A program made the position numbers and the translations under genes. A stretch of 64,000 nucleotides of DNA from a virus. The notes beneath the pieces were generated by a model. The model did not search any database. It saw only the letters and a list, made by a program, of their open reading frames with translations, and was not told the origin of the DNA. Positions within the stretch are counted from its first letter, which is position 1. Each line of letters starts with the position of its first letter. Where the stretch lies: the IMG/VR virus record IMGVR_UViG_3300015202_000004, positions 83,943 through 147,942 of that record; one strand, 5' to 3'. This document shows, piece after piece, positions 4,007 through 59,193 of the stretch.

Positions 4007-4537
4007 AAAAAATAGTAACCGTTCTCCATGCAAATAACTTGACAATTGACCTTAATTAAAGTACAGTATAAAAAAGGAAAGTGATATGTCTTTGGCAGCA
4101 GTGATGGGCAATTCCATACGCCGACCTCAAAAAGATTTAGCCACTCCTCGAATTAACTCCGGGGAGGTTAGGTATAATCTCCTTGTGCAAAAAGCAATAG
4201 CTCAAATTTTAGGCGGTAAGCCCTGGGAGCATATATTGAAATCATGCTCGGGGAACAATCGTGAGCGTTTTGTAGCCGAAATGCAAAGATACGTCCGAAT
4301 CTTAAAGCCTGGAACCTGATTGCCTTCTCTTAGAGATTATAAAACAAAAACGCCTCGAATCGAAGCGCTAATAAACGTCTGAATCAACTATTATGTAGAA
4401 CACTAAATTACCAGCGTCGTTGAAGTTTGAACCCACAACCACATACTCCGTATCATTTGCTATGATACTTCGGAGTTTTTTTGCTAGCTCGTTTTGTGGA
4501 GATATCAAAAGGTACATGGATAGTTACCTTAATAAAA

Positions 4538-7416: not shown

Positions 7417-7935
7417 TCATTGTAATAAATCCCAAATATCTTGTGGTAAGACTTGACGATAAGTTTTTTTAAAGTTTACTTTTTCAAAAACACAATAAGC
7501 TAACAAAGATGAACAAACAAAGCTAACAGGAGGACCTTGGCCCCATGTAGGTAAACCAACAAATCCTAGCAAACTTCCGAAATCGTAGCTGTGACCTAAA
7601 TTTGCCGTTGTCATAGCTATGGCTGCTTCTATGTCAGGAACAATTTTATTAGAAGGCATACGTGCTTCGGTTACTACTTGTTGTAAGTCATCTTGTTCAA
7701 TGACTTTATTTTCAGCACCCCAAGCAGCAATCATTTTGCCATCACCTAAAGCAATACCACAATGTGTATATCCTTTAAATCCTTGAGCAATACGAATGAT
7801 TAAATCACTAATACCGCCTCCATTTGTGAAAACTATAGTGCCTCTTTTAAAAGCTTGTTTTCCACTTGACAATGTAATAAGTAATGATTTACTAATTGCG
7901 TCCATTATATTTCCCTGCTTAAAAATGGCATCCAT
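7417..7935 (-). CDS. permuted papain-like (YiiX/NlpC-P60) peptidase
   Basis: THCGIALGDG His motif precedes YDF and CSSL Cys motif. Confidence 0.6.
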   Translation of the reverse strand: MDAIFKQGNIMDAISKSLLITLSSGKQAFKRGTIVFTNGGGISDLIIRIAQGFKGYTHCGIALGDGKMIAAWGAENKVIEQDDLQQVVTEARMPSNKIVPDIEAAIAMTTANLGHSYDFGSLLGFVGLPTWGQGPPVSFVCSSLLAYCVFEKVNFKKTYRQVLPQDIWDLLQ

Positions 7936-7958
7936 ACGATAGCTAAACTTGTTTTTTG

Positions 7959-8030
7959 TAGTCTAGTAGAGAATCGAACTCTAATTTTTACCGCGAGAAG
8001 GTAAAGAATTAACCATTATTCGACTAGACC
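7959..8030 (-). tRNA. tRNA-Glu(CTC)
   Basis: TTACC-TTCTCGC-GGTAA; TTCGATT T loop; no CCA. Confidence 0.75.
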
Positions 8031-8244
8031 AAATGTTTCAACCCCAGGTTTTACGTTAATTGAATTGTTCTTCGTCGTCTTTTAATTTGGTTTTATTCAT
8101 TATAGCACATGTAACGGATTTAGTAAAATCGGTCGCGGCTTCAAAACCATTAAGTAAAAAGAAAGATGGAATTACAGCACCAGCTATAATTGCGCCCCCT
8201 ACAAACAAAGCTTTTTTTAAAATATTCATATTTGTCCTTAAATT

Positions 8245-8320
8245 TGGTGGGACCGGAGGGAATCGAACCCCCGACACGATGCTCTTCAGGCATCTGCTCT
8301 ACCAACTGAGCTACAGTCCC
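8245..8320 (-). tRNA. tRNA-Phe(GAA)
   Basis: Canonical 76-nt cloverleaf with CCA. Confidence 0.95.
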
Positions 8321-8326
8321 GTAAAT

Positions 8327-8623
8327 TTAAGCCGCTGGCCCTTCAGTTACTTCTTCTTTAATATCCATTATATGCTGATGCAAAGCGTCTAACTTATCAT
8401 GTGTTTCATTACGAGCAGAATTAGCCGCGAACAAAAGCAAAATACTTAAACCATTGATAATTAAATTCTCCATACCCAAACCGTTATCAAACTGACCATG
8501 AGATAAGTATGAACTTGCTGTCCAACCTACTAAGAATGCAATTGCAATTCCTAAAGATAAAGGGTGTTGTGCGGCTTTATTTAAAAGCATTTGAAAAGCA
8601 ATTAGAAACTTCATTATACTCAA
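8327..8623 (-). CDS. small membrane protein, low-affinity iron permease-like
   Basis: Two TM segments then ANSARNETHDKLDAL. Confidence 0.4.
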   Translation of the reverse strand: MSIMKFLIAFQMLLNKAAQHPLSLGIAIAFLVGWTASSYLSHGQFDNGLGMENLIINGLSILLLFAANSARNETHDKLDALHQHIMDIKEEVTEGPAA

Positions 8624-8788
8624 TCAGTTGGGTGAATTTCACATCCAATGTAAACTATCTTTACATTTTCAGTAGAATTAAGAGGGCGTTTTGATTGCTC
8701 GCGGTCAGCATTAGATTTACAATCGTTGCATTTTTCGGCTGCAACAAATGAAACGTTGTGACTTTTTGGTCGTCTGTAATCTTCTGGA

Positions 8789-9418
8789 TTATGCATTATG
8801 ATTTACCATTTTCTCGGCAATATCTTGGGGAAATGCATATGCTTTTTGTGGAGCATAAGGGCGTTCTTGAGGACTCATACTTTGAGGATTATGTGGGCCG
8901 TAATTTACCCATGCATTTTGTCCTAAAGTTTCACTAGCTAAGGCAGGTAAAGCTTCTTTTGGAAACATTTTACTATGTGCTTGATAAGCTTTTAATTCAC
9001 CTTTAGGTCCAAATTCATGACCTGTATTAGCGTGTCCATGAATATCGTGAACTGCTCTAAAGAGTGAATTATAATTTTGCTTAGTGCCAGGTGCCATTTC
9101 TGCTAAAGGATGGTCTTTCTGCAAATCATCAACATTATACACTTTTAATTGTTTATTTGCAGCATCGTTACGCATATCATGTGACCTAGTGTAAGGCTCG
9201 TTTGGTGTAAAATGAAACTTCATGCCTTGATTTTTTAAGTCATTATACTGATTAAGTACGTGATGTTTAAAGGAATCATAGGAACTTTTTGTAGCAGGGT
9301 CGCCAGGATTATGAACCGCTTGTTCATGAATTTGGCCGATATTAGCTAACTCATTTTTAGTATTCGTATTAAGACTACTAAATCTTCGTATGCTAGCAAT
9401 ATAAGTCATCCATTTCAT
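8789..9418 (-). CDS. conserved phage protein, His-rich (FRAVHDxxGH)
   Basis: 209-aa ORF with AAGGAG RBS. Confidence 0.6.
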   Translation of the reverse strand: MKWMTYIASIRRFSSLNTNTKNELANIGQIHEQAVHNPGDPATKSSYDSFKHHVLNQYNDLKNQGMKFHFTPNEPYTRSHDMRNDAANKQLKVYNVDDLQKDHPLAEMAPGTKQNYNSLFRAVHDIHGHANTGHEFGPKGELKAYQAHSKMFPKEALPALASETLGQNAWVNYGPHNPQSMSPQERPYAPQKAYAFPQDIAEKMVNHNA

Positions 9419-9443
9419 GGCGACTCCTTAAAGATTAAAAAAA

Positions 9444-9528
9444 TGGCTGCTAGAACAGGACTCGAACCTGTAGTGGCTTTCGCCGACGCATTAACAGTGC
9501 GCTCCGATACCATTCCGGTCACCTAGCA
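9444..9528 (-). tRNA. tRNA-Asn(GTT) with long variable arm
   Basis: GCGCA-CTGTTAA-TGCGT; V arm GGC-GAAA-GCC; G73, CCA. Confidence 0.8.
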
Positions 9529-9784
9529 TTATACATTTATTTTAATACTTTAACGGGCTTTTGAACGAAACAATGTGTAAATCGCCTTGATTTTTTTCTA
9601 GTCCTGCCGCTGTTATTTCAACAGATAGAAAACCGCGTTCCTTAAGAAAAACTGTCAAGTTTTTAAGTCGGGCATGAACTTCTTCTTGATTCTCGCTCCC
9701 ATTCAATGGGTACTTAAGTCGAAGTTCATATACAGAAGTCTCTTCCATTTATTTATATTACCACAGAATTGCCTCTGTGTCAAT

Positions 9785-9872
9785 TGGTGCATAGGGTAGG
9801 ATTCGAACCTACGTATCGCTTCCGCGAAGCGGTTTTACAGACCGCCGTTTTTAGCCACTCAACCACCTATGC
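9785..9872 (-). tRNA. tRNA-Tyr(GTA)
   Basis: GCGGT-CTGTAAA-ACCGC, long V arm, CCA. Confidence 0.9.
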
Positions 9873-10414
9873 ATAAACCAATTTATGCCGCAAGAAGTTC
9901 TGTCCCAGTTTCTTTAAAATTAGCTTCGGTGAGACACATGCCGGGAACGGCCTTGCCTACGAAGTATCCCAAATGTTCGTTTCAGTTCTTATTGCAATGT
10001 TTACAAATTAGCATTTCACCACGACGAAATGAAGCCTGAGTAGCATTGGCTACTTTTTGCCTTGTAGTATTTCGGTCATACTTTTCTTGGCTACGTTCGA
10101 TTGCTTCAAATGTGGTCATGATAATTCTTTCTTAGTGCCCGTAATTAAATCCTAACATAAATTTTCTACCACTTGCATAGTGAGTTATTAATGTATCTGA
10201 AAATCCGCAGCAACCATTTTTTTGTAAATTTTTATATTCCTCTTCTTCAAGGATATTTCCGATTTCTGCTACACGATAGTTATCAATACAAGGGTCATTA
10301 ATTTTGTTAATTAATGATGATGCTCTTTTTGCTAAAAACAACCCTATTTCATCACCATATTTTAATTGAAACCATGTCACCCATTTATCGTACATTTTTA
10401 ATCCTTTAAAAAAT

Positions 10415-10489
10415 TGGCCGGGGAAGCGGGTAACGCTCCCGCGTCTCATGCTTTTCAGGCATACGCTAATCTGTCTCAGCTATTCCCCG
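10415..10489 (-). tRNA. tRNA-Phe(GAA), atypical elbow
   Basis: Loop CTGAAAA; T loop AGCGTTA; D loop AG in place of GG; G73. Confidence 0.75.
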
Positions 10490-10561
10490 ATAAGTACGTT
10501 CCTATCCGCCGTCACGTACAACCGCTAGTTGGCGCATTTTCAGCGCTTCACATTTTAAAAT

Positions 10562-10635
10562 TGGCTTCCCCGAATGGATTCGAACCACTGTGACAACGTT
10601 CAAAGCGTTGCATCCTACCGCTAGATGACAGGGAA
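10562..10635 (-). tRNA. tRNA-Gln(TTG)
   Basis: CAACG-CTTTGAA-CGTTG, CCA. Confidence 0.85.
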
Positions 10636-10651
10636 ATATGTTTTAAATTTT

Positions 10652-10726
10652 TGGCTCCATCGGTTGGTTCCGCCCCAACATCTTATTGTTCAAAGCAATG
10701 TATCCTACTAGTTAGACGACGATGGA
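10652..10726 (-). tRNA. tRNA-Gln(TTG), atypical elbow
   Basis: Loop CTTTGAA; T loop GGCGGAA; D loop AACTAGTA. Confidence 0.75.
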
Positions 10727-10732
10727 ATAAAT

Positions 10733-10807
10733 TGGCTCCCTCGGCTGGCTCCGCCCCAACATTAATGGCTTCAGAGGCCATAGTCCTACTCATTAGACGA
10801 CAAGGGA
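10733..10807 (-). tRNA. tRNA-Gln(CTG), atypical elbow
   Basis: ATGGC-CTCTGAA-GCCAT; T loop GGCGGAG; D loop AATGAGTA. Confidence 0.75.
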
Positions 10808-10981
10808 ATAAATTTTATATTGATTCTTTTTCTAGAATTTTTCCGCGTAATTCATTCTTGTTTGAACGCGCTTTGTTGAATTTTCTCAACTTTGGATTGC
10901 AGGTAGAGCATTTTACTAATCTGTGAAATCGCTGCCATGCCTTGCCGCTTAAGTTAGTTTTGTATTGCATTTTAATCTTTT

Positions 10982-11056
10982 TGGTGGCCTATGTCGGTTC
11001 TGCCCCGACTTTCACTGTTCGAAAGACAGTTGTCCTAACTAGTAGACGAATAGGCC
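10982..11056 (-). tRNA. tRNA-Glu(TTC), atypical elbow
   Basis: ACTGT-CTTTCGA-ACAGT; T loop GGCAGAA; D loop ACTAGTTA. Confidence 0.75.
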
Positions 11057-11123
11057 AAGTATGTTATTTTATTAACTCAATTTACTATTATTATGGTAAC
11101 ACACTTTGCTTAAGGAGTCAAAC

Positions 11124-11690
11124 GTGGCTACCAAACGAACTGACGAAGAATATATTGACGCGGCCAGACAATCTAAATATATGAAACAAATGTTGGAAAT
11201 TTTAAATTTAAAAACAATGAATTATAAAAGTCTTAGAGAAAGGCTAAAAAGGTTAAATATTGATACTTCTCATTGGGAAACTCAAAATAATTTTAGATTC
11301 AAGAAAGGAAATCAATTAAATGTAAAACCTATATTAGAACAATTAGTCGAGTACGCGCCCAATTTAAAATCTTCTACGGTTAGAAATAAATTAGTCAAAG
11401 AAGGTCACTGGGTTTATCAATGTTATAATTGTAAAATATCTGATTGGGATAATAAGTCATTAACTTTACAATTGGACCATATTAACGGAATAAATACTGA
11501 TTATCGTTTGGAAAATTTACGTTTATTATGTCCCAATTGTCATTCGCAAACTGATACTTATTGTGGAAAAAATGTAAAAAGAAAAGAAAAATTAGTTAAA
11601 ATTAAATTTTGCGAATGTGGAGTTAAAATTTATAAAAGTTCTAAAAACTGTGTTTCATGCTCTAATAGAAAGAAGAAGAAACAGATTTGA
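11124..11690 (+). CDS. HNH endonuclease inserted antisense within tRNA cluster
   Basis: GTG start after AAGGAG; LQLDHINGINTDYRLENLRLLCPNCHSQT. Confidence 0.9.
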   Translation: MATKRTDEEYIDAARQSKYMKQMLEILNLKTMNYKSLRERLKRLNIDTSHWETQNNFRFKKGNQLNVKPILEQLVEYAPNLKSSTVRNKLVKEGHWVYQCYNCKISDWDNKSLTLQLDHINGINTDYRLENLRLLCPNCHSQTDTYCGKNVKRKEKLVKIKFCECGVKIYKSSKNCVSCSNRKKKKQI

Positions 11691-11699
11691 TTTAAAAAT

Positions 11700-11773
11700 T
11701 GGCTCCCGAGGGTGTAATCGAAACACCTCCTTGCCCTTAACAGGGGCCTGCACGACCTTCATGCTACTCGGGA
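11700..11773 (-). tRNA. tRNA-Asn(GTT)
   Basis: Loop CTGTTAA, G73, CCA. Confidence 0.85.
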
Positions 11774-11792
11774 ATACATTTGAATTATTTTC

Positions 11793-11883
11793 TGGAGCGG
11801 CTAGGTGTCGAACCCGCTTCTCTGCTCGCGAAGCAGCGCATTAGCCTTCTGCCCTATAGACGGCATCCGTATGCTACGCTCCA
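11793..11883 (-). ncRNA. tRNA-like RNA, CGC anticodon, extra hairpin in D loop
   Basis: TGGAGCG/CGCTCCA acceptor, CTGC-TTCGCGA-GCAG, TTCGACA T loop, D-loop insert TGCCGTCTATAGGGCA; lacks G3:U70. Confidence 0.45.
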
Positions 11884-12022
11884 TCATTATGTATGTTTTA
11901 GTTTTTTGCTTTTCCAAGCTTGACGAAGGTTACCTTTTTTTGAAATACGCCATTTGAATTTAATGACGGTGATTTTCACTTCCTTTTCCATAATGCATAT
12001 AGCCTACTTTCTTAATAGTATT

Positions 12023-12110
12023 TGGTGGGCAAGAGAGGAGTCGAACCTCTACGCTACAAGAGCGATTGCCGGGTTACAGCCGGGTACATTAGCCATTCTG
12101 TCACCTGCCC
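12023..12110 (-). tRNA. tRNA-Tyr(GTA)
   Basis: Loop CTGTAAC, long V arm, CCA. Confidence 0.85.
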
Positions 12111-12124
12111 AAATTTTTCCCAAT

Positions 12125-12146
12125 AAAAAAGACCCTTGCGGGCCTT
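12125..12146 (-). terminator. attenuator terminator upstream of tRNA cluster
   Basis: AAGGCCC-GCAA-GGGTCTT then TTTT, 15 nt before tRNA-Tyr. Confidence 0.8.
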
Positions 12147-12185
12147 GAAGTGTGATTTGCAGAGAGCCGAAGCTTGATATGCTAC

Positions 12186-12284
12186 TTACACGTTCAGACC
12201 CAATTCGCATAGCGAATTAAACAATGCAGCTTGTTGCTGCTTGTTATAATTTTGTTCCTGATTAAAGAACTGCTGCGAATTCAT
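12186..12284 (-). CDS. putative attenuation leader peptide MNSQQFFNQEQNYNKQQQAALFNSLCELGLNV
   Basis: 32-codon ORF between a sigma70 promoter and a terminator; last codons form an alternative helix with the terminator 5' arm. Confidence 0.7.
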   Translation of the reverse strand: MNSQQFFNQEQNYNKQQQAALFNSLCELGLNV

Positions 12285-12338
12285 CGTTGTTTCTTTCTTT
12301 TAAGGGTGCCCATCGCTAAAGTGCTCTTGGACTCCATT

Positions 12339-12367
12339 AGTATAGCATCTATTAAGTAGGTTGTCAA
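12339..12367 (-). promoter_or_regulatory. sigma70-type promoter for leader/tRNA operon
   Basis: TTGACA-N17-TATACT. Confidence 0.8.
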
Positions 12368-12401
12368 CCCTTTGCTTGTTGTAACATTTAAAGGGTAAAA
12401 A

Positions 12402-12478
12402 TGGACCCGATAAAGAGACTCTAACTCTTAACCTTTTCGTTCGAAGCGAAATGCTCTATACTATTGAGCTATATCGGG
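12402..12478 (-). tRNA. tRNA-Arg(TCG)
   Basis: TTTCG-CTTCGAA-CGAAA; T loop TTAGAGT with D loop GT (U19:A56). Confidence 0.75.
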
Positions 12479-12567
12479 ATACTTTCCAATATAATTTTAT
12501 CTACACTGATACTAGCGTGTACCTCACAAATGTATTATAGTCGATTTCATTAAAAATGTCAATGACA

Positions 12568-13812
12568 TTAAGGAGTAATTCCCGATTGATAAGCATGTGG
12601 TATGACTTTAACAATGATATTAGAAATGCCTCTAAAATAGGCACCAGCAATATTGTCTTCATTATAAGTTAAATAAAAGCTAACTGTTTGGGTAGTTTTA
12701 TTTGGTATGTAAGCTCCTGCCTTTGCAATAAACATTACGTCGTTTGCAAGAAGGCCAGGTTGAGTAACAGCGCTGGTGGTAGAAACATTAAAATTACCCG
12801 AAGGTGCATATACCGAAGGCGAAAGATAAGCCGTGTCCGATGCTGGGTTTAATAAAAGTTCATTCTTATTATTTAAAGTACCTGGAGAAATAAAGATTTG
12901 CGCTTCTAATTCTACAATCCAAAAATCAAAATTTGTTAGTGCTGGAATAAGAGAATTTACAGGTACTGTTAGTAATCCGGTTGAAGGGTTATATGTGCAT
13001 AATGTATTGCTAAATAAACCAGCTATTAATGTACCGCCTGTCAAAGTATTTTGACCATTAACTAAAGTAATAGCGGTTCGCGAAGCCGGGTCATCCAAAA
13101 TTGAAATTAAATCATAATACTGATAACCCGTGCTTGGATTGGCTCCAATATAACTGGAAATTGCACCTGGTACAATAGAAGCAACCGAATTGGTAACAGA
13201 GACACCCACCCTTTGATTAACAATACCTGTAATTTGTGTAGCAGTTTGCCCGAGAGGAACGCTGCCAAAAGTAACCTTGGCCCCTGGACTCATTACACTT
13301 CCGACGCTAGCACTATTACCAGCATTAGTGTCTACGCCATGAACCGATAAAACATTACCACTAATAGAATCAATTTGAACAACAACAGTGTCAGTTCCGT
13401 CGTCAACAGCCAAAACGGAACCTGGTAAAAATTCTGATGCATCAGATACATGTAAAATCTGATTTAGACCTATGTTTGGTTCCCTAAAATTGGCAGTTGT
13501 TAAAATTGGCAAAGTACTACCACCACCGCCGCCGCCACCGCCACTTGTGACAGCAGGTAAAGGATTATAAACAGCTACAACAATATTAAATTCGCCACCA
13601 TATTCTACTCGAAAATGATAAAGGGGGCCACTAGCGGAAAAGCTAACATTGTAATTATTGCCAACATTGATAGCGCTTGTCTTTATTCGACCCTTGTTGA
13701 CAGTCGGCGTATCAACCAAAGAATTATCAATAGCAGAATAAATAGATGCAGTTGCTCCGTCAGCAATGATGCTTGCATCAGTGTAAATATCTTTAAAAAT
13801 CAATGTATACAT
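12568..13812 (-). CDS. virion fibre/decoration-like protein
   Basis: Beta-rich, poly-Gly linker, N terminus similar to 14733 and 15551 ORFs. Confidence 0.5.
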   Translation of the reverse strand: MYTLIFKDIYTDASIIADGATASIYSAIDNSLVDTPTVNKGRIKTSAINVGNNYNVSFSASGPLYHFRVEYGGEFNIVVAVYNPLPAVTSGGGGGGGGSTLPILTTANFREPNIGLNQILHVSDASEFLPGSVLAVDDGTDTVVVQIDSISGNVLSVHGVDTNAGNSASVGSVMSPGAKVTFGSVPLGQTATQITGIVNQRVGVSVTNSVASIVPGAISSYIGANPSTGYQYYDLISILDDPASRTAITLVNGQNTLTGGTLIAGLFSNTLCTYNPSTGLLTVPVNSLIPALTNFDFWIVELEAQIFISPGTLNNKNELLLNPASDTAYLSPSVYAPSGNFNVSTTSAVTQPGLLANDVMFIAKAGAYIPNKTTQTVSFYLTYNEDNIAGAYFRGISNIIVKVIPHAYQSGITP

Positions 13813-21409: not shown

Positions 21410-21577
21410 ATTATGCTATAGGGACATAAAACTGGGCAGGTGGGTAACGCTCACCACTGATTGTATTGAAACAATCTTCACTATGTTGATAATCACCAGA
21501 TGCCACCATATAATGGGGTGACCGAGAAGAATCGAACTTCCCTTATCCTCTGCCCAACAGATAAGTATTATACTCGA

Positions 21578-25291: not shown

Positions 25292-26764
25292 TTAAATTAC
25301 CATGGTTTGCGCTTTTTCTTTAATCGTTGCGAATGTACGTTCGCGAATCTGCTCGAAAGTGTACGTCACTGGATTTGTTCCATTAAAGTATGTCGTTTCC
25401 AAAACGCTTGGCGCGTGGCATAGCGGGTCATCAAGATTCAAACGGTCGATTGTTGTGTAGCCATCATTTCGACCAGTGAAACCATTTTTGTCTTCCACAA
25501 GGTCAAGGTCGCCGCCGCGTGACTTCTTACCTGGGTCAGTGATAGGGTCCTTCTGAATTGGGACGTAGATACCATTAATTTTTGCAAGGCAAAGCTTCGT
25601 TGCCCAGCGATAGGTATCGCGGTTTACCTTTTGGTGAAGACCACCACCTGTACCGAAGGCCACGTTATCTAGAGCAAAGCCTGCGGCCATAACTGCCTTA
25701 CAAATCTTTTCAATTAGAATTACGTCGTTACCGTCACCATTGATTACTGCAACATGGTTTAAAACCTTGTAACCCTTACCATTGACCGTTACGCCAAAGC
25801 TCTTTTCAAGAGATTGTAGAATCATTACTACATTGACTACCGCGTCTCCGCTATCAGGACGCAGGACAAATAATTTGCCTGAATCAATAATATCCTGCTT
25901 GTATTGAACGCCAATGATATTGTTCACAAAGTTCATCATATCGTAGGAATCAATAACATTCGCAACCAGTGGAGCGCCTGGGAAACGTGTCAACGATTTG
26001 TTAACGATAAGATGCTCAAGCGCCTTACCATGTGCCGTTGTCACACTGTGTTCCGAGGCCGGGATTGAAAAGGCAGGCATACCGGAGTATCCATACATTT
26101 TCTTCGCATAGGCGATACCTTCAACCGTATCACTACCACCAGAGATTAACGTGTGAACTGCACCACCGATTGCCGCCGATTCGCTACTCGTTGAACCTCG
26201 GGCACCGAAGTCGTGGTTACGCGAAGGGTAAAGAGCGTCGGGCGCATCCGAAGTGAGCAACAGGTATTTGTAAATTATTGTGGCAATTTCCATATCGTTC
26301 GTTGCGAACGATGCACCATACCACGAAGCGCGAAGCTGCATGGTTTCAAGGAAGGAAGTCATCCAGAACAAACGTTCGTCTGTTGAGCGTACAGTAGCCA
26401 TTACATTGTGGCTAGGGACCGTTAGACCTTCGGGTACAGAGCGAATAAGTGCCGGAATCTTACCGTCGTACTTTTCAATCATGTACTTAATATCTTCGTA
26501 GGGGAAAATGTCCGCGCCTAGGAAGTGTTCTTTATAGAAGTCTCGTGCTTCTTCATTGTCCTCATGCGTAACAGTAATGTCGGCTAGTTCTTTAGCGAAC
26601 ATCTGGAAACCTAGCCAAGTAATATCTGCTTCGACTTTACCATTGCTAGCGTCTGTTCCGCGCGATTCCGTGTAGGTCATCAATTCGGTTACACCATCGG
26701 GGTACATGCGGGGGTGGGAAATCTTGTACGAATCTGTCCTGTACAAAGGGTTCATTCTAATCAT
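25292..26764 (-). CDS. nadV: nicotinamide phosphoribosyltransferase
   Basis: TDSYKISH, HDFGARG, PASEHS, DSYD, RPDSGD, KDPITDPGKKS. Confidence 0.92.
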   Translation of the reverse strand: MIRMNPLYRTDSYKISHPRMYPDGVTELMTYTESRGTDASNGKVEADITWLGFQMFAKELADITVTHEDNEEARDFYKEHFLGADIFPYEDIKYMIEKYDGKIPALIRSVPEGLTVPSHNVMATVRSTDERLFWMTSFLETMQLRASWYGASFATNDMEIATIIYKYLLLTSDAPDALYPSRNHDFGARGSTSSESAAIGGAVHTLISGGSDTVEGIAYAKKMYGYSGMPAFSIPASEHSVTTAHGKALEHLIVNKSLTRFPGAPLVANVIDSYDMMNFVNNIIGVQYKQDIIDSGKLFVLRPDSGDAVVNVVMILQSLEKSFGVTVNGKGYKVLNHVAVINGDGNDVILIEKICKAVMAAGFALDNVAFGTGGGLHQKVNRDTYRWATKLCLAKINGIYVPIQKDPITDPGKKSRGGDLDLVEDKNGFTGRNDGYTTIDRLNLDDPLCHAPSVLETTYFNGTNPVTYTFEQIRERTFATIKEKAQTMVI

Positions 26765-28358: not shown

Positions 28359-28625
28359 ATAAAAGTTACGCGGGGCTTTTTCGACTCTTTTCTTTAAACT
28401 TTGCAGCTTTCCAGAACATCAACATCTATTTGTATTTCAACAACAGGCCCTATTTATTCGGTAGAACTAACCATTAACCAGCGCGTAATTTATTAATGTA
28501 CAGGATTCGAACCTATGGTTCCCAATGTATTGCATTTCCAGATGCACACAAAGAATCTATCTGGTATCAACCTTAAACCAAGTTCTATAAATAGAACACC
28601 TCGGTCAACATTAAAATTTTAAAAT

Positions 28626-32123: not shown

Positions 32124-32957
32124 ATAGGGCTTCTATTATATAGGAACTATTACTGTTTGTCAACCTCTGATTTTTGCCAAGGATTTAAACGCATTTTAAC
32201 ATATTCATCAATCGTTATACCCTTGAAAGAACCACTGAAGTTATCGCCTAATTTTCCATGTTCTTCAGCAATCTTCATACACTCTTTAATAGATAAGGCA
32301 GGCATCGAACCTGAATAGACTCGTCCGGTTGCAGAGTCTACGTCGGGATGATTAAACATCTTTATTTAGTCTCCATTCAGACGCCTTGTATAATGGGAAG
32401 CTAGCTACTACATTACCAACAATCTGGTGTAAAATGTACGATAGCTTTTCTTCTCTTGTGGCCGTAATAGGCGGTGGATTTTTCCACCTCATTTTTGTTA
32501 ACCAAGAATTTTCGAAAATTTTCTCGGAACCATTAGTAAGATATAGTTCTACATCGGCGACACCTTTTAGTGCCATGTTGTTTTTCCGTTGTAAAACTTC
32601 TAGCTCTCTATTGGTTTCTTTTAACAAATCCAATACTTTATTCAAACGAGGGTTTACCGCATCCTGAATATAAGCTTGAAGAATTTCGTTTGCCTTATTA
32701 AATGCTTCAAGCTCTGTTTCTGCGATTTGATAATCCACAAAAATGCCCAGATAAATTACGAAGCCTACAAAGCCACCTTTGGAAGGCGAACTGTCACGTT
32801 GTGTATGACGGTCTTCGACAATAACGCACCCCATGCGGTTGGTATCTACGGTGTCGCCAAGGTGCCATTCATCTAAGCTACAACCTAATTGCTTAGTTTG
32901 AACTTCTTCTTCACCAATGTAAAACGAATCGAACATGCCCATTGTTATTGCGTTTCC

Positions 32958-35713: not shown

Positions 35714-36067
35714 ATGTTTTGTTGAATTGTAAGTCTAATTGTTCAACGGCAATTCTGGGCCTCTACTCTCCCAGTTTACTCACGAGGTTCTTATGTTCTG
35801 CGGTGACTCACTAACTACATCGGATTCTTCTAAATGCACACTGCCGATTCAGTCTGGGATTTCAACCCAGTATCCCTTTAAAAGTTAGATAGTTTATTTT
35901 TACTTAGCTGATTTAGCGTAATTATACTTACCATACGCCTTACGGAATTCCTCTGCTGGAATCACGTTTAAAATATACATACTCATCGCCTCTTTACTCT
36001 TTGGTACACCGCCTGGACGTGCTGTTTTCTTGGCTCCCATTATTCTCTGCTTTCTTTATTTTAAAAT

Positions 36068-44969: not shown

Positions 44970-44971
44970 AT

Positions 44972-45001
44972 AAAAAAACGAGGACATTTACCATGTACTC
45001 G
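44972..45001 (-). terminator. terminator immediately upstream of tRNA-Trp pair
   Basis: CGAGTACAT-GGTAA-ATGTCCTCG-TTTTTTT. Confidence 0.7.
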
Positions 45002-45025
45002 CAAGAAGAATATTAAACTAACTCT

Positions 45026-45139
45026 TTAGCAATCTTCGTCGCATTCTTGCGAAGGCATATGGAAATCGCGCGGAAGAGGTTCTTCTTGCTTGTGTTCTCG
45101 CCAGCTTTCAGCTAGTTCCATGATAAAAGTCGTTTCCAT
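45026..45139 (-). CDS. small ORF, possible Trp leader peptide
   Basis: METTFIMELAESWREHKQEEPLPRDFHMPSQECDEDC; AAGGT RBS. Confidence 0.5.
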   Translation of the reverse strand: METTFIMELAESWREHKQEEPLPRDFHMPSQECDEDC

Positions 45140-45158
45140 TTCTATACCTTGTTAAAAT

Positions 45159-45350: not shown

Positions 45351-45836
45351 GTATTGAAGAAATTTAATTCATTAACGGTTTGATTTTGGAATAAAATTCT
45401 TCGATAATGAAATTTATTTTACCTGTTGATTCCCAAAAATTGATTTGGGTTTGTCCATATTTTAGGGCAAGCTTTTCAACAATTAAGTTTTTGATTTTCT
45501 TAAAGAAAGGGTCAGAGAACTTAAGTTGCATAGCCGACTTTTCTTCATTATAGCGGCTAATCTCTTCTTCATCTTTGGGTTCATGGCACCAATGACCGTA
45601 TGCTCTGGCGACTTCTTTATGTTGACAAAAAGAATTTAAACCGTTTGCTTTTCGAACGGCAACGACTTCTTCATTTGTGTAACGTTGGCTGCCTGTTTTA
45701 CCCAACACTTTATAATGTCCAAAAATTTTAAATACTTCGACGTTATTAATATACAAAATAATGCTTCGATGGCTTACAGTTTGGGCTGTCTCAGGGGCAA
45801 TTGTAATCACTTATGAAATCCTTTTAGTTAGAAATT

Positions 45837-45910
45837 TGCCCCGACTGGGAATCGAACCCAGACTCACAAGTTTTTAGAGAACTCGGTTCTAACCGTTGAA
45901 CTATCGAGGC
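45837..45910 (-). tRNA. amber suppressor tRNA (CTA anticodon)
   Basis: GCCTCGA-TA-GTTC-AACGGTTA-GAAC-C-GAGTT-CTCTAAA-AACTT-GTGAGT-CTGGG-TTCGATT-CCCAG-TCGGGGC-A. Confidence 0.82.
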
Positions 45911-45996
45911 ATATTTGTTCCCCGTGCGTTGCATTACACTCCGCAAATCGCCTGTTTTTCACAGGGTGCCTCTTATACGGCTGACAGGGAATTTGA

Positions 45997-47445: not shown

Positions 47446-48189
47446 AAATTAGATTAAGACTTCAATACCAACGATATTACCGTCTTTATCTTTGTCAATA
47501 TTACACATGTAAGAAGAACTTGTTTCTTTTACAAATTCACCTACGGGCAATTCTTTAATTCGGAAATAAAACGCCTCTACGTTAGAAGCGTCAATTTTTT
47601 CCCGAGTCATTGACACGACGACTTTTTCTGTATTCACAATATTATTATACTACTTTCTTCTATTCTTGTCAACTAAAAACTATGGCGTTCTTTCAAGTCC
47701 ATAATATCTAAATGATTACGAACGTTCTTAGGCGTCATAATATTAGCGTGACCTTCAAAAGATTCTATGGTGATGCCAGTATCTTCAACAGCCGTTTGAA
47801 TTTTGCTTATGATAGCTGCATACCAAGCGCCCGTGCGAGGAACCATTTTCATTGCTTGAATTAGGTTAGCGATTTCGTATTCATTCAACTCGATGTGTAT
47901 TTCCATAGCACATCCCTCCATAGTTTAAAGTTGTAACACTATAAAGTAGATGTTTATGATATAAAAATATCACATTAACGTTTTACTTTCAAGTTCAAAA
48001 ATATCGTGATTAATTTAAATATTACTAACGGAAAGAACAAAATTGACAAAAGCAGATGCCAAACCACTCTTGGATGTGTAACTAAATTATATAAAGATTC
48101 ATGAACCCTAATGTCACCACTTGACGATGTAGTCAACTCAAGTGGACCAAATGCAAAACTTAAAAAAATCAAACAAATTAAAATCGCAA

Positions 48190-48714
48190 TCATTTCATAA
48201 CCTTTACACAATCGCGAACTTCCATAAGAACTTCGCCGAGCCAATTTGTACCACGCCAGTTTGCCGGATTATTTACACGGGGGTCATTTACCGCTAATTT
48301 AACACCCCAAATAGCATCGTAAGGCGAAGCTTCAACAAGGTGCTTATCTCCCGTAGAGATAATGTATTTACGTAGTTTTTCATCAGATGTGAATTTTGAT
48401 AAATTAACATTGAAAACAATATCTTTGGCAACATTGTTCCACGTTTCAACATCAAAGTTCTTTACAGTTTTACCCAAAGCTTTTTGCCCCGAAGGGTTCG
48501 ATTCGCGCATGATTTTATCAAACGCTTCCTCGTCATTAAAGAATAAAGCTTTACCAGCCATCATTCCTTGTTCAGCACAATTTAGTGCCAATTGTTTTCC
48601 AAATAACTCAGCACTAAAATTACCAGTCTGATACCACTGGGAAAACACGCCTCCGTAGAAGAAGACGTATTTTTCAGTGATTCTTTGGGAATCCAATATT
48701 AACCCTTCACGCAA
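48190..48714 (-). CDS. NADAR family protein
   Basis: FSQWY, AEQGMMAGKALFF, KALGK.VKNFD, EASPYDAIWG, GTNWLG. Confidence 0.9.
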   Translation of the reverse strand: MREGLILDSQRITEKYVFFYGGVFSQWYQTGNFSAELFGKQLALNCAEQGMMAGKALFFNDEEAFDKIMRESNPSGQKALGKTVKNFDVETWNNVAKDIVFNVNLSKFTSDEKLRKYIISTGDKHLVEASPYDAIWGVKLAVNDPRVNNPANWRGTNWLGEVLMEVRDCVKVMK

Positions 48715-50825
48715 AGAACTTGTTTGATTTGATGCACCACTTCAACTAAATCAGATTGAGCCGCCATGACAGCATCAATGTCTTTATAAGCTTGTGGGAT
48801 TTCGTCTATCACCCCAATATCTTTTCTGCACTCAACACCCTTGGTTGCAGCGATTTGGTCTTCAACCGTGAACTGTTTCTTTGCTTGTGTACGCGACATT
48901 ACTCGTCCTGCCCCGTGGGAACAAGACATGTAAGATTCAGCGTTTCCAAGACCGCGAACAATGTACGATTTAGTACCCATCGAACCAGGGATAATTCCCA
49001 TTTCCCCTCGGCCAGCGCGAACCGCACCCTTACGGCTTACATACATTTCTTCACCGAAGTGAATTTCTGTAGTAACGTAGTTGTGGTGACAGTTGATGAC
49101 TTCGGTGTCAATGGTGAACGTTGGAAGCTTAAGGCGGTCCTCACGCATTACTGAAAGCAAACGCTTAAGCATGACTTCACGGTTTGTGGCCGCATAATCT
49201 TGTGCCCAAGTCATTGCCTTGACGTAATCCTCGAACGAATCCGTACCTTCCGATAAGAACGCAAGGTCCTTATCCGGCAAAACTTCGCCACGCTTTTCAA
49301 GTTCCGCTTTCGCTTCGTTGATAAAGTATGAACCGATTTTGTTACCGATTCCACGCGAACCCGAGTGCAGCATTAACCATACGCGATTTTCTCTGTCGAG
49401 ACAGAGTTCGATGAAGTGGTTGCCGCCACCAAGGGTAGCAAGCTGATTGACCGGGTGCTTGTCGTTGACGATTTTTGGATATTTCTCGTCTAACCATTTG
49501 AACCCAGCATCAAGGTGCTTCCAGCCTGTTTCAACAACAGACGGGACACGAGTATGCATGTTGAATCCAACTGGAACCGTGCGCTCAAAAGCTTCACGGA
49601 GAGGTTTTAAATCAGATGGCAAATCTTCGGCCTTCAAAGAAGTACGAACTGCCGCCATGCCACAATTACCTGTCATAGCAATGTTCCCACCTCGTCGCAT
49701 TACCCAGTATCCAGATGGCAAAGTAAAACAATAAGCCCTACCGTCAATCGGAACTACTTCTGTTATTTCTGACTTTGGCACACCAGCCATACCCACCATG
49801 GTATTATTATGAGCAAAAACACGATAATCAATGGCACCACTGTAATGTTCATCTTGCCGTAAAACCGCTCTATATCCAGATGCAGTAAAAGCATAATGAG
49901 CAAAATCAGCAGCTTCTTTAATCCGCGTAAAAAATACACGGTCTTTTATATTCCCGTCCCAATGAAAACATTCATCAGTGAAAATTTTTAATTGCGCTAA
50001 AGAAGCTTTCCAAAGCCATTCATATGTTTTTGTAACTTTTGGCGGTAGAAATCTGAAAGATACATCTTCGCCATAAATTTTTTCTGTATACTTAATTTTT
50101 GCGGCATCTAAAAGTTCTTTTGCTTTTTTTGATTTACGGGCTTTACGTACCTTTACAACAGCATGATTTTGATGGTCAATATGACCATCTGCTAAAACCA
50201 TTACCATAACACGCAAATTATCATCTGAGATTTCAATTGAATTTGATAAAACTGGTGTAAAAGTAGTCATAAATTCAGCTTTATAACCTTGAACTAAATA
50301 GTCATGTGTCCTTTTAAATTGTTCAGCAGTTATAACTTTTTGAACACGAATCCGGTCGCGGCCAGAAATTTCCCAACACAAAATTGTATGGTCTGGCGAT
50401 AAAACTTGGTTAATACCATGCTTAGTTTTAAAAGAATATAGTTTATCGTATTCTTTTTTAATATATTCTTTTGGTTTAACAAACTCACCTTGGCCTGTAC
50501 TCGGGTCATATTGCATAACTGAATCACCGTCTTGATATTCTGAAATAAATTTCCATCCATCTTCAGATAAAAATTCTGTTTCCGCATCAACGCAACCGAT
50601 ATCAACGCCAACGATGCTCGGAATTATAACATTCTTGGTTGCAATTACACTACCAACAGTTGAACCAATTCCGGCGTGTACGTCGGGCATGATTGCTACA
50701 CCGTGGACGAATGGAAGCAACGCAACGTTTAAAACTTGCTTACGGGCAGATTCTTCGAAGACTACGCCTTCGACCCAAGCCTTAACAGGCTTACGCCCTG
50801 GCCCTTCAATTAATTCATAATTCAT
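48699..50825 (-). CDS. rtcB: RtcB RNA ligase containing an intein
   Basis: MPDVHAG, VGVDIG/CGM, TLGGGNHFIE, HSGSRG, HHNY, PGSMG, SHGAGR. Confidence 0.95.
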   Translation of the reverse strand: MNYELIEGPGRKPVKAWVEGVVFEESARKQVLNVALLPFVHGVAIMPDVHAGIGSTVGSVIATKNVIIPSIVGVDIGCVDAETEFLSEDGWKFISEYQDGDSVMQYDPSTGQGEFVKPKEYIKKEYDKLYSFKTKHGINQVLSPDHTILCWEISGRDRIRVQKVITAEQFKRTHDYLVQGYKAEFMTTFTPVLSNSIEISDDNLRVMVMVLADGHIDHQNHAVVKVRKARKSKKAKELLDAAKIKYTEKIYGEDVSFRFLPPKVTKTYEWLWKASLAQLKIFTDECFHWDGNIKDRVFFTRIKEAADFAHYAFTASGYRAVLRQDEHYSGAIDYRVFAHNNTMVGMAGVPKSEITEVVPIDGRAYCFTLPSGYWVMRRGGNIAMTGNCGMAAVRTSLKAEDLPSDLKPLREAFERTVPVGFNMHTRVPSVVETGWKHLDAGFKWLDEKYPKIVNDKHPVNQLATLGGGNHFIELCLDRENRVWLMLHSGSRGIGNKIGSYFINEAKAELEKRGEVLPDKDLAFLSEGTDSFEDYVKAMTWAQDYAATNREVMLKRLLSVMREDRLKLPTFTIDTEVINCHHNYVTTEIHFGEEMYVSRKGAVRAGRGEMGIIPGSMGTKSYIVRGLGNAESYMSCSHGAGRVMSRTQAKKQFTVEDQIAATKGVECRKDIGVIDEIPQAYKDIDAVMAAQSDLVEVVHQIKQVLCVKG
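49665..50594 (-). mobile_element. intein (310 aa) with LAGLIDADG-like endonuclease region
   Basis: Starts CVDAETEFLSEDGW, ends YCFTLPSGYWVMRRGGNIAMTGN/C; internal VLADG and HWDG blocks. Confidence 0.88.
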
Positions 50826-57456: not shown

Positions 57457-59193
57457 TTATCGGGTCAAAACCGGATACAATTCCGCAATTTTTTTGACCG
57501 CACTACGCGGGTCGCCTTCGTATGAAGCCATTAGGTCAAAGATTTTCTCCGACCAGCCACCGATTTGTGCTACACGAGATTCACGGTCAAAGTTTGACGT
57601 GTTACCGCCAGTTAGATTGATTTCGTATAGGTAAGGTGTAGTTTCGCCGTTGGTTGTGCCCTGAACCCACGTTGCATACTTCTTCCATAGCTCGTTCAAG
57701 GACTGGCCGTAACCGTAAGAATTGTAGCATTGTGTGTCCGTGAAATACATAACACGGTTGGTGACAATTCTGTTATTGATTAGATAATCAAGGATTGTCC
57801 ACGCATTGGTTGACATACCAACCTTGCCAACAAGGTTGCCAATTGCATTTGCGGTATCAAGAATGTTTGCTGACGGGGTTACCGTATCAAACGTTGTACC
57901 GAATGCCGAAGCAATACCATCTTCAGATAGATGACTTGCCATTGCTGCCATTACAGTAGCAATTTCTTTCATCGTAACTGATGACTTGTCGTTTAGACGC
58001 GAGTCCATAGAACCCGAAACGTCTGCCGCGACAAGGGTACGACCTGTGAATTTTGGAATATTCGAAACCGAGTGGTTAAGAGCAATACTAAGCGCTTGAC
58101 GTAGTAGAGCCTTTGAATCACCCTTTGCAGGCTGATTCCACTTCGCGAACATGTCGCGATTCGAGTCCGCATAACTGTAGTATCGTAACGCATACTCTTC
58201 GCCCTCGATTGCCTTCATTGCTGAAAGGAATCGGAATGGAAGTTGCTTCGACTTCAATACTTCTTCTTTGCTCGTCAACTTCGTAACAACGTCATCCATT
58301 GAAATGTCGTTCTTCAAAAAGTTGTTCAAGTTACGAAGTACGGCCATGTAACCCATGTTAGGTAGTACATACGACCAAGTTTCCTCGGTTGAACCAAACT
58401 TCGATATAACAGTTTCCCACGTTGCGTTTGACTCGCGAACCAATTCCTTTGCTTTCGCATCGAACTTAGTCATCTTCATCAAGGCATCACGAGCCGCCGT
58501 CATTGGAAGCAATGACTTGAAAGCAAGGTTGGTCAATGGGGCACGGTGACCCGATTCAACAATTACACCCTCTTCAGCAACGCCGCGAAGAATATAGTTG
58601 AATAGAGCAGCCTGAACCGCATCCTTCGGCTTTGGGTGAACCAAACGAAGAACGTCCTTTAGCTTGACCTTTTTGTTGTCCTGGTCGTACTTAACCATGC
58701 TGTACTCATTGAATTTGTTGAAAGCAATTTCAAGAGACGAACGCAAATTCATTGGTAGCTTATGGTTGCCCTTATTGACATGTAGCCAATAAGCAACTGC
58801 TTCGGTGATTTCGTCTGGACGACCGAAAACCTTAGAAGCCATAAGAGTAACGTCAATAGGATATGCTGCGCTCTTCGATTTGTTCGCATGCATCGCACGG
58901 ATGCCTTCTACGAATAGAATCATCGGGATGCTACGAAGGTGCATTTCATTACGCAAGTATGCAGCAAGTTGGAATACAAACGCCGGGTCCTGCTTCGCGA
59001 TTTTGTTTACAAGCGTGACAATATTAGTGTATTCCGCGTTAGCAGATACATAAAACTTATCACCCGCTCCGCCGCCAAGTGACGTGGATGCAGTAACGTA
59101 AAGCGCTGTTTTGTCATCAAGCGTATAAGCGTTGCCGCCTGCAAGATTGACCGTGCGTGAGGTATCGACGGCGTTGGTATTAAACTTTGACAT
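57457..59193 (-). CDS. rsr: Ro60-like TROVE + vWA protein
   Basis: NLAGGNAY, YLRNEMHLRS, LKDVLRLVHPKP, TWET, MAVLRNL, SKQLPFRF, DVSGSM (MIDAS), TD.Q. Confidence 0.92.
   Translation of the reverse strand: MSKFNTNAVDTSRTVNLAGGNAYTLDDKTALYVTASTSLGGGAGDKFYVSANAEYTNIVTLVNKIAKQDPAFVFQLAAYLRNEMHLRSIPMILFVEGIRAMHANKSKSAAYPIDVTLMASKVFGRPDEITEAVAYWLHVNKGNHKLPMNLRSSLEIAFNKFNEYSMVKYDQDNKKVKLKDVLRLVHPKPKDAVQAALFNYILRGVAEEGVIVESGHRAPLTNLAFKSLLPMTAARDALMKMTKFDAKAKELVRESNATWETVISKFGSTEETWSYVLPNMGYMAVLRNLNNFLKNDISMDDVVTKLTSKEEVLKSKQLPFRFLSAMKAIEGEEYALRYYSYADSNRDMFAKWNQPAKGDSKALLRQALSIALNHSVSNIPKFTGRTLVAADVSGSMDSRLNDKSSVTMKEIATVMAAMASHLSEDGIASAFGTTFDTVTPSANILDTANAIGNLVGKVGMSTNAWTILDYLINNRIVTNRVMYFTDTQCYNSYGYGQSLNELWKKYATWVQGTTNGETTPYLYEINLTGGNTSNFDRESRVAQIGGWSEKIFDLMASYEGDPRSAVKKIAELYPVLTR

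Follow-up and report, generated by a model that had tools for sequence, protein, structure and literature searches.

Why would a phage set a short open reading frame (ORF) and a transcription terminator in front of a block of its own transfer RNA (tRNA) genes? The question is raised by a locus on the minus strand of a 64,000-nucleotide (nt) stretch of DNA, hereafter the window, which corresponds to bases 83,943 to 147,942 of the 193,979-bp IMG/VR virus record IMGVR_UViG_3300015202_000004. The record represents an uncultured glacier phage with a contractile tail (tail sheath assigned by PHROGs); its completeness is estimated at 87%, and its GC content is 36 to 42%. Coordinates without an accession number are those of the window. 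We regard it as moderately probable that positions 12367 to 12122 constitute a multivalent leader-peptide transcription attenuator, which gates tRNA genes for Tyr, Asn, Glu, Gln, and Phe in response to the supply of these very tRNAs.

The reasons for which phages carry tRNA genes are an active question, and compensation for codon usage, substitution for host tRNAs that have been degraded, and evasion of anticodon nucleases have been proposed. How such genes are regulated is essentially undescribed, as far as our literature search, with its partial coverage, shows. The initial annotation of this stretch stated that no attenuator of this type was known to govern phage tRNA genes. We likewise found no description of leader-peptide attenuation of phage or bacterial tRNA genes in a full-text search, the corpus of which leaves subscription journals largely outside.

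Leader anatomy, codon match, and the tRNA block

The locus presents its parts in the order promoter, ORF, terminator, and tRNA genes. The promoter consists of TTGACA (12367 to 12362), a 17-nt spacer, and TATACT (12344 to 12339), with a TG preceding the -10 element; it agrees with the consensus at 11 of 12 positions. The leader ORF (12284 to 12186) comprises 32 codons and a TAA stop codon and begins 48 nt past the predicted transcription start near 12332. Its ATG is the sole possible start, because an in-frame stop codon lies five codons upstream. Beyond the ORF is an intrinsic terminator (12146 to 12122) in which a 7-bp stem with a GCAA loop, AAGGCCC-GCAA-GGGTCTT (12146 to 12129; -9.9 kcal/mol), is followed by the U-rich tail TTTTATT. 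The promoter, the ORF with its peptide, and the terminator are all as the initial annotation described them, and the terminator does precede the first tRNA gene; the spacing had been given as 15 nt, and we measure 18 nt from the stem to the start of tRNA-Tyr at 12110.

As to the codon content of the ORF, within codons 2 to 23 (12281 to 12216), 17 of 22 codons are cognate to the downstream tRNAs for Tyr, Asn, Glu, Gln, and Phe. This scored set was determined by the tRNAs and not by the peptide, and it is the same whether the next 8 or the next 12 tRNAs are considered. The initial annotation had counted 19 matching codons among the first 23 (Gln 7, Asn 5, Phe 3, Ala 2, Glu 1, and Tyr 1). The counts are right, and the Ala match is spurious, because the Ala codons of the ORF are GCT and GCA and standard wobble rules allow an anticodon CGC to read GCG alone.

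The enrichment is exceptional within the phage. When the first 23 codons of all 2,120 six-frame ORFs of 23 to 80 codons in the 194-kb genome are scored, the leader reaches 17 and the runner-up 12, and the best 23-codon window over 2,436 genome ORFs is again that of the leader. Base shuffles of codons 2 to 23, which keep the composition, score 4.9 on average and 13 at most, and 17 was reached in none of 20,000. The two alternative frames of the leader RNA score 4 and 6. As the enrichment is confined to one frame, the signal belongs to the reading frame and not to base composition, A-richness, or hairpins; it speaks only indirectly for translation of the ORF. The matching codons are interleaved (QQFFNQEQNYN.QQQ), and the exceptions Ala19, Ala20, and Leu21 fall in the 3' strand of a hairpin and are paired there to codons for Gln and Lys; in the folded model, this pairing may account for them.

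Which tRNA genes lie behind the terminator? The first is tRNA-Tyr(gta) (12110 to 12023; ARAGORN and Rfam), followed by a tRNA-like element (11880 to 11795) whose anticodon-like loop has CGC and whose D region is oversized; this element is called by no tool and was recognized by reading only. After tRNA-Asn(gtt) (11773 to 11700; ARAGORN) come tRNA-Glu(ttc) (11056 to 10985; Rfam, 42.4 bits, with the anticodon assigned by reading) and three tRNA-Gln genes, namely, one with anticodon ctg (10807 to 10736; Rfam, 39.7 bits, reading, and alignment) and two with anticodon ttg (10722 to 10651, from reading and alignment only, and 10635 to 10562, from ARAGORN). ARAGORN also places tRNA-Phe(gaa) at 10489 to 10415 and a second tRNA-Tyr(gta) at 9872 to 9785, the latter being the last tRNA before a promoter-like site with 10 of 12 matches (9783 to 9755). 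The remainder of the same-amino-acid block (9528 to 7958) holds tRNA-Asn (9528 to 9444), tRNA-Phe (8320 to 8245), and tRNA-Glu(ctc) (8030 to 7958), with ORFs interspersed. The order of tRNAs proposed in the initial annotation is correct, with eight of them called by ARAGORN (Tyr, Asn, Gln(ttg), Phe, Tyr, Asn, Phe, and Glu(ctc)) and Rfam contributing another two. Its further statement that the block contains this set and no other applies to the tRNAs from 12110 to 7958; the same stretch also encodes about nine small or medium-sized proteins and an HNH endonuclease. Every Gln, Asn, Tyr, and Phe tRNA gene of the phage lies behind the leader, and one additional Glu tRNA gene lies elsewhere. Separately, two of the three tRNA-Gln genes (10651 to 10722 and 10736 to 10807) have an unusual T loop, with GGGGCGGA(A/G)CC replacing the usual GGTTCGAATCC T arm, and both were missed by ARAGORN.

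The position of the leader is consistent with a gate. Between 4000 and 62000, the minus strand has 25 strong promoter sites that agree with TTGACA-17-TATAAT at 11 or 12 of 12 positions, and 10 of these end 9 to 56 nt before the 5' end of a tRNA or transfer-messenger RNA (tmRNA) gene, with no leader between. No site of this strength occurs on the minus strand between 12339 and 5512. Hence, the genes for tRNA-Tyr, the Ala-like element, tRNA-Asn, tRNA-Glu, the three tRNA-Gln, tRNA-Phe, and the second tRNA-Tyr appear to depend on transcription past the terminator, and the gate likely covers at least these first nine RNA genes (eight tRNAs and the tRNA-like element). Such transcription appears to come from the leader promoter and from a perfect sigma-70-type promoter (TTGACA-17-TATAAT, 12 of 12; 12562 to 12534) that precedes tRNA-Arg(tcg) (12478 to 12402; ARAGORN). 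This tRNA gene lies directly upstream of the leader promoter and outside the gated block; reading of the sequence revealed no terminator between it and the leader, so that transcripts from the promoter at 12562 would enter the leader too. A hairpin with a T run lies directly upstream of only 2 of 55 RNA genes (53 tRNAs, the tmRNA, and the tRNA-like element), tRNA-Tyr at 12110 and tRNA-Trp at 44970, and no codon-matched ORF was found in any other gap before a tRNA gene of this phage.

Competing RNA folds and the predicted switch

Could the leader RNA act as a switch? The initial annotation proposed that the end of the ORF pairs with the terminator region to form an antiterminator, and folding agrees with this. 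The 5' strand, GGGTCTGAACGTGT (12201 to 12188), comprises the last base of codon 28 and codons 29 to 32, up to the stop codon, and repeats the GGGTCT of the terminator 3' arm. It pairs with ACACTTCAAGGCCC (12153 to 12140), the final 7 bases of which are the terminator 5' arm. The resulting helix, of 13 pairs interrupted by two single-base bulges, surrounds a small UUCG hairpin. It is part of the minimum free energy (MFE) fold of the whole leader (-63.2 kcal/mol; z score, -3.47), which is more stable than all 200 shuffles and holds the antiterminator, not the terminator.

The competing helix was compared with what random upstream sequence offers. Pairing of the terminator 5' arm with the sequence upstream yields a gain of 7.6 kcal/mol, compared with 2.2 +/- 1.6 kcal/mol for 2,000 random genomic upstream sequences, of which 13 reach as high a value; the real helix thus exceeds 99.35% of them. 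We prefer this measure to a null based on the MFE, which varies with the amount of upstream sequence included.

Constrained folding, which the initial annotation had suggested as a check, returns mutually exclusive helices. With the ribosome modeled as a masked 30-nt footprint at 18 positions, stalls at all 14 tested codons between 4 and 23 leave the antiterminator in place, and a ribosome at codon 25, 28, or 30 or at the stop codon gives the terminator. The last cognate codon, Asn23, is also the last position that leaves the antiterminator strand free in the masked folds.

These folds suggest the following course of events. Polymerase would start near 12332, and a ribosome would load on the A-rich leader and translate behind it. 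With charged Gln, Asn, Phe, Tyr, and Glu tRNAs plentiful, the ribosome would reach the last codons or the stop codon (12200 to 12186) and cover the first GGGUCU; AAGGCCC would then pair with the second GGGUCU, and the terminator so formed would end transcription near 12122, before tRNA-Tyr. If any cognate tRNA were scarce, the ribosome would stall within codons 2 to 23 and leave the first GGGUCUGAACGUGU free to pair with ACACUUCAAGGCCC once the latter was made, so that no terminator would form and polymerase would continue into the tRNA genes. By speeding the reading of the leader, the products of the block would exert negative feedback on the supply of phage tRNAs. Since no helix was found to sequester the antiterminator strand when the leader is untranslated, the predicted default in the absence of any ribosome is read-through. 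As for the trigger, tRNA cleavage by host defense or starvation may be named as pure inference.

Two other sites were considered as further instances and rejected. Before the first of two tRNA-Trp genes (region 44971 to 45158), a 37-codon ORF (45139 to 45026, minus strand) is followed by a hairpin with seven T's that ends 1 nt before the tRNA; the ORF has one Trp codon, the fold is ordinary (z score, -1.45), and the switch model does not hold there. The apparent terminator at 47592 to 47570 sits within a real 62-codon gene.

Related designs and rival explanations

Does the design occur elsewhere? By tail sheath, the closest cultured relatives of the glacier phage are distant (about 28 to 32% identity) and include Bixzunavirus mycobacteriophages, some Gordonia phages, and Bacillus phage G. 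In a small, hand-picked sample of three cultured phages (two of them picked as tail-sheath relatives), all three, Bacillus phage G, Caulobacter phage phiCbK, and Mycobacterium phage Catera, have a codon-matched ORF before a tRNA block; Gordonia phage Skog has a single tRNA. These analogues have no sequence similarity to the glacier leader, and their amino acid sets differ. When leaders are scored against the amino acid sets of all blocks, the leader's own set is the row maximum in four of five usable rows and ties in one; Catera was left out of this comparison, and its counts come from its own window scan.

The case in phage G is gp86 (in the region 58381 to 58576 of JN638751.1), a 44-codon ORF annotated without a function and provided with a strong Shine-Dalgarno sequence. 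The block past it encodes Cys, Asp, Phe, Tyr, Glu, Thr, Ser, and Trp tRNAs, and in a 26-codon window of gp86, 24 codons are from these eight amino acids, all of which are present; the next nonoverlapping window among 6,126 in the phage scores 18. An 11-pair terminator follows gp86 and ends 8 nt before tRNA-Cys. In phiCbK (NC_019405.1, 47000 to 53000), three tRNA blocks each lie behind an ORF, and the three ORF regions (464 to 742, 2541 to 2792, and 4342 to 4505 of that segment) each show enrichment for the amino acids that the following block serves, with best 12-codon windows scoring 9, 12, and 9. Behind two of these ORFs lie very strong hairpins that carry U runs (-23.5 and -33.8 kcal/mol), neither of which was listed by the pattern scanner, so that the order of ORF, U-run hairpin, and tRNA block is common to gp86 and to phiCbK blocks 2 and 3. 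The promoters of the phage G and phiCbK leaders were read by eye and not called by a tool.

Catera and phiCbK block 1 share with the glacier phage locus only the codon-matched ORF. In Catera (NC_008207.1, approximately 124341 to 124399), an 11-codon ORF ending in QQNRQQ stops 24 nt before a separate pair of genes, tRNA-Gln(ctg) and tRNA-Asn(gtt). This is the only 6-codon window with at least five Gln or Asn codons among 77,624 (six frames, 44 kb). Across eight aligned phages, the ORF and a hairpin over its stop codon are far better conserved than the flanks, and the Myrnavirus version keeps the frame across an in-frame 6-nt deletion and reads ...NVNRQQ. The hairpin has no U run, and no terminator is demonstrated there. 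Both the phiCbK and the Catera leaders probably have leaderless or near-leaderless starts. The effects in this small sample are large. In the recurring pattern, a phage has one leader-gated block, or a few, and other blocks that are served by plain promoters: no matched leader was seen at the second tRNA cluster of phage G, which has plain promoters, and no matched ORF was seen at the three other tRNA blocks of Catera. We give about even odds to the broader proposition that phages with many tRNAs carry a widespread, undescribed class of multivalent leader-peptide attenuators, each spelling out its own tRNA block.

How does the locus compare with established systems? Multivalent attenuators are known from enterobacteria, in which the thr leader contains Thr and Ile codons and the ilvGMEDA leader contains Ile, Leu, and Val codons. 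As in these, a short ORF with a start codon, rich in the codons of several amino acids, lies between the promoter and the regulated genes, an intrinsic terminator precedes those genes, and, in the in silico model, a mutually exclusive antiterminator has its 5' strand covered by a ribosome at the end of the ORF. Unlike in these, the target in the glacier phage is tRNA genes (with small ORFs among them) and not genes that make or charge the sensed amino acids, so that what is sensed would be the gene products themselves; the leader addresses five amino acids, its ORF lies within a very stable RNA domain, and read-through is the predicted default, as no anti-antiterminator of the 1:2 type was found. 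The leaders trpL, hisL, pheL, and leuL are single-amino-acid attenuators with runs of one codon type and regulate amino acid supply. The glacier leader shares with them the geometry of stop codon, antiterminator, and terminator and the notion that the position of the ribosome selects the fold; it differs from them in that its codons are interleaved and that it would regulate tRNA supply.

The pheM leader of pheST, an attenuator that regulates part of the translation machinery for one and the same amino acid, is closest in target, although there the regulated gene encodes an aminoacyl-tRNA synthetase in a bacterial chromosome, whereas here the tRNA genes themselves would be regulated. T-boxes resemble the proposed glacier attenuator in that conditional read-through of a terminator responds to tRNA status; unlike it, they bind uncharged tRNA directly and require no translation. 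A T-box reading was rejected, as no covariance model for this riboswitch matches within 7800 to 12700 at an E value of <=10. In mycobacteria, leaderless Cys-rich short ORFs serve as attenuators, and their codon content reports one amino acid. They resemble the probably leaderless QQNRQQ mini-ORF of Catera but regulate host cysteine operons, not phage tRNA genes. Among the leaders named above, pheL appears in PMC3082878.

Homologues of the glacier leader were sought in several ways. A blastn search of 11600 to 12700 against 50,697 phage records gave no match, and an 18-mer of tRNA-Tyr and a degenerate back-translation of FFNQEQNYN each gave 0 matches in IMG/VR. Neighboring proteins of 414 and 222 amino acids have no IMG/VR relatives, and the former has no relative besides itself among 5.8 billion proteins. 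A metagenome scan with an alignment of a 209-amino-acid ORF identified 28 loci, 5 of them with a tRNA; the closest (65% and 51% identity) are on contigs of 1,263 and 2,180 bp that do not include the leader region. Tail-sheath relatives with 50 to 79% identity exist in public metagenomes, where contigs of 312 kb are listed, and the two IMG/VR fragments with such relatives carry no tRNA genes; a single-protein tail-sheath scan returned nothing. Copies of the leader itself are present in three other glacier or ice sequencing runs (X2, X6, and X12), and the X3 contigs do not reach it. Two of the leader pieces show 0 differences over 190 to 221 nt, and the 1,042-nt X2 piece shows 1 unplaced difference; copies this close to identical carry no information on constraint.

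Several observations weigh against an attenuator. None of these searches yielded a diverged homologue of the leader, and hence there is no covariation at the locus; 14 of 16 listed sequencing runs contain part of the stretch, and no RNA run is listed among them. The Shine-Dalgarno sequence of the ORF is weak (AAGAAAG; for comparison, AGGA lies upstream of 44 of 153 long ORFs in the phage genome). Directly after the AUG, codons 2 to 28 form a very stable RNA domain (12281 to 12202; -24.9 kcal/mol; z score, -4.77; equaled by 0 of 200 shuffles), in which an outer helix, AAUUCGC:GCGAAUU, surrounds two hairpins. This domain could hinder initiation, or the RNA itself could be the product. It could also limit initiation to a cotranscriptional window, point to a function of the terminated RNA in its own right, or serve as a pause structure that synchronizes ribosome and polymerase. 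It pairs with the antiterminator strand in no fold.

The switch, too, has weak points. Competition with the terminator is limited to the outer six antiterminator pairs (GGGUCU:AGGCCC), as the terminator uses the second copy of GGGUCU. Over 12201 to 12122, the antiterminator (-20.0 kcal/mol) and the terminator (-19.2 kcal/mol) are only 0.8 kcal/mol apart and nearly isoenergetic, which means that any switch must be kinetic; in the model, the upstream GGGUCU copy, being made first, would win unless covered. The 80-nt switch region alone has a z score of -2.02, with 9 of 200 shuffles folding equally well, and under the cruder MFE-based null with 80 nt of context, the MFE fold keeps the terminator and 6.9% of random sequences equal the locus. 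No trp-like 1:2 anti-antiterminator was found in the folds. In phage G, the competing helix is marginal, being reached by 4.8% of random sequences, while masking gives a mixed pattern, and at the tRNA-Trp unit of the glacier phage, the pairing gain is 3.0 kcal/mol, which 26% of random sequences equal. Within the block, an HNH endonuclease gene on the plus strand (11106 to 11690), which looks like a mobile insertion, separates tRNA-Asn from tRNA-Glu, and promoter-like sites with 10 of 12 matches at 11811 to 11784 and 9783 to 9755 may drive tRNA-Asn at 11773 and the distal part of the block (9528 to 7958), respectively.

What else could the locus be? The attenuator interpretation of the initial annotation is supported in part: it retains its anatomy, its logic, the frame-specific codons, the gating position, and the position-dependent helix, and it loses the Ala match. 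An independent small gene with a leaky terminator, the product of which would be either a structured RNA about 210 nt long or a 32-residue peptide rich in Q and N, would leave the tRNAs to constitutive partial read-through and the codon match without a sensing role. We consider this unlikely. A promoter, about 210 nt of structured RNA (z score, -3.47, and -4.77 inside the ORF), and a terminator are a typical small-RNA layout, which the weak Shine-Dalgarno region, the modest terminator (-9.9 kcal/mol), and the occurrence of another small ORF with a hairpin and T run, lacking codon logic, before tRNA-Trp would all suit; yet such a gene leaves unexplained why the enrichment occurs in a single frame (17 versus 4 and 6) and matches the adjacent tRNAs, and why a match recurs in phage G, phiCbK, and Catera. 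It would also put the only Tyr, Asn, Gln, and Phe tRNAs of the phage behind an unregulated stop. Moreover, no Rfam family matches the leader's own RNA at an E value of <=10 (scan of 7800 to 12700). Identification as a Y RNA or a known small RNA was rejected, as no family lies over the leader; a weak YrlA match lies at 8199 to 8300, and a subthreshold sX4 match (21.9 bits; gathering score, 70) spans tRNA-Tyr and reaches only the tail of the terminator.

The leader could instead be a translated tRNA sensor with a different output, such as Rho-dependent polarity, ribosome-dependent protection or processing of the precursor, or regulation of the opposite polarity. That the codon match is strong and the structural switch moderate (near-isoenergetic states and mixed masking in phage G) would fit this idea, as would the Catera stop codon, which lies in a hairpin without a U run and departs from the classical geometry. 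We find it similarly improbable, given that the classical polarity agrees with all 18 ribosome positions tested at the locus in the masking model, that only 0.65% of random sequences match the strength of the competing helix, and that this locus, phage G, and phiCbK all have a canonical hairpin with a U tract. Chance, by which a low-complexity Q/N-rich frame merely happens to precede a Q/N/F/Y/E tRNA block, seems to us very unlikely. Very many windows were scanned for a pattern that was actively sought, the residues of a low-complexity peptide are not independent draws, and a conservative estimate, the probability that Q, N, and F all fall within a random set of 5 of 20 amino acids, is 0.009; against this stand the codon statistics, the independent helix statistic (0.65%), and similar or stronger independent cases in all three other phages examined.

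If the attenuator reading holds, the phage would gauge for each codon whether the cell is still able to decode phage genes. Missing tRNAs would be made on demand and shut off once supplied, and this self-regulating tRNA homeostat could also answer host defenses that cleave tRNAs. Phages would then monitor decoding capacity directly and tune tRNA supply by feedback, which would extend classical attenuation from the supply of amino acids to the supply of tRNAs. Annotators would gain a simple rule for finding regulated tRNA blocks, and synthetic biology would gain compact codon-specific sensors. The glacier myovirus shares the design with Bacillus phage G and phiCbK, and mycobacteriophages have a mini-version of it, which would make it either ancient or a repeated invention; its occurrence in the cultivable Bacillus phage G and phiCbK makes the idea testable at the bench without growing the glacier phage.

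The surrounding tRNA region

What kind of genome houses this leader? ARAGORN finds 46 tRNA genes in the whole genome, every one of them inside the window and on the minus strand, and Rfam adds further tRNAs and a tmRNA (19555 to 19129, minus strand; 68.1 bits), which is preceded by a perfect promoter (19638 to 19610). A tmRNA inside a tRNA array is also found in Mycobacterium phage Catera and Bacillus phage G. The tRNA genes are strewn over about 52 kb, singly or in small groups between protein genes. Near-perfect TTGACA-17-TATAAT sites between 4000 and 62000 fall almost all on the minus strand, and many tRNAs in the same interval have ...ATAT or ...TTAT immediately before the 5' end. Additional PHROGs assignments in the phage include a split DNA polymerase, SbcCD, helicases, a ribonucleotide reductase, and a tRNA nucleotidyltransferase.

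The tRNA region also codes on the minus strand for an RNA-repair and RNA-surveillance set (48699 to 50825, 57457 to 59193, and 25292 to 26764), composed of a 708-amino-acid RtcB ligase, a Ro60/TROVE protein, and a nicotinamide phosphoribosyltransferase. The Pfam match of RtcB is split into two stretches, and the protein is possibly interrupted or extended. No Y RNA was found at the Rfam gathering score.

Some of the tRNAs are themselves unusual. One (45836 to 45911, minus strand; Rfam tRNA score, 55.6 bits) has the anticodon CTA, would decode the amber stop codon, and is labeled Pyl by ARAGORN. Others are long for their type, with 85 nt for Asn, 83 nt for Thr, and 88 nt each for Trp and Lys. 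T-arm-like motifs (GGTTCGA...) that are called by no tool occur in the tRNA spacers at 21410 to 21577, 28359 to 28625, 32124 to 32351, and 35714 to 36067 (minus strand), which suggests decayed or noncanonical tRNA-like elements.

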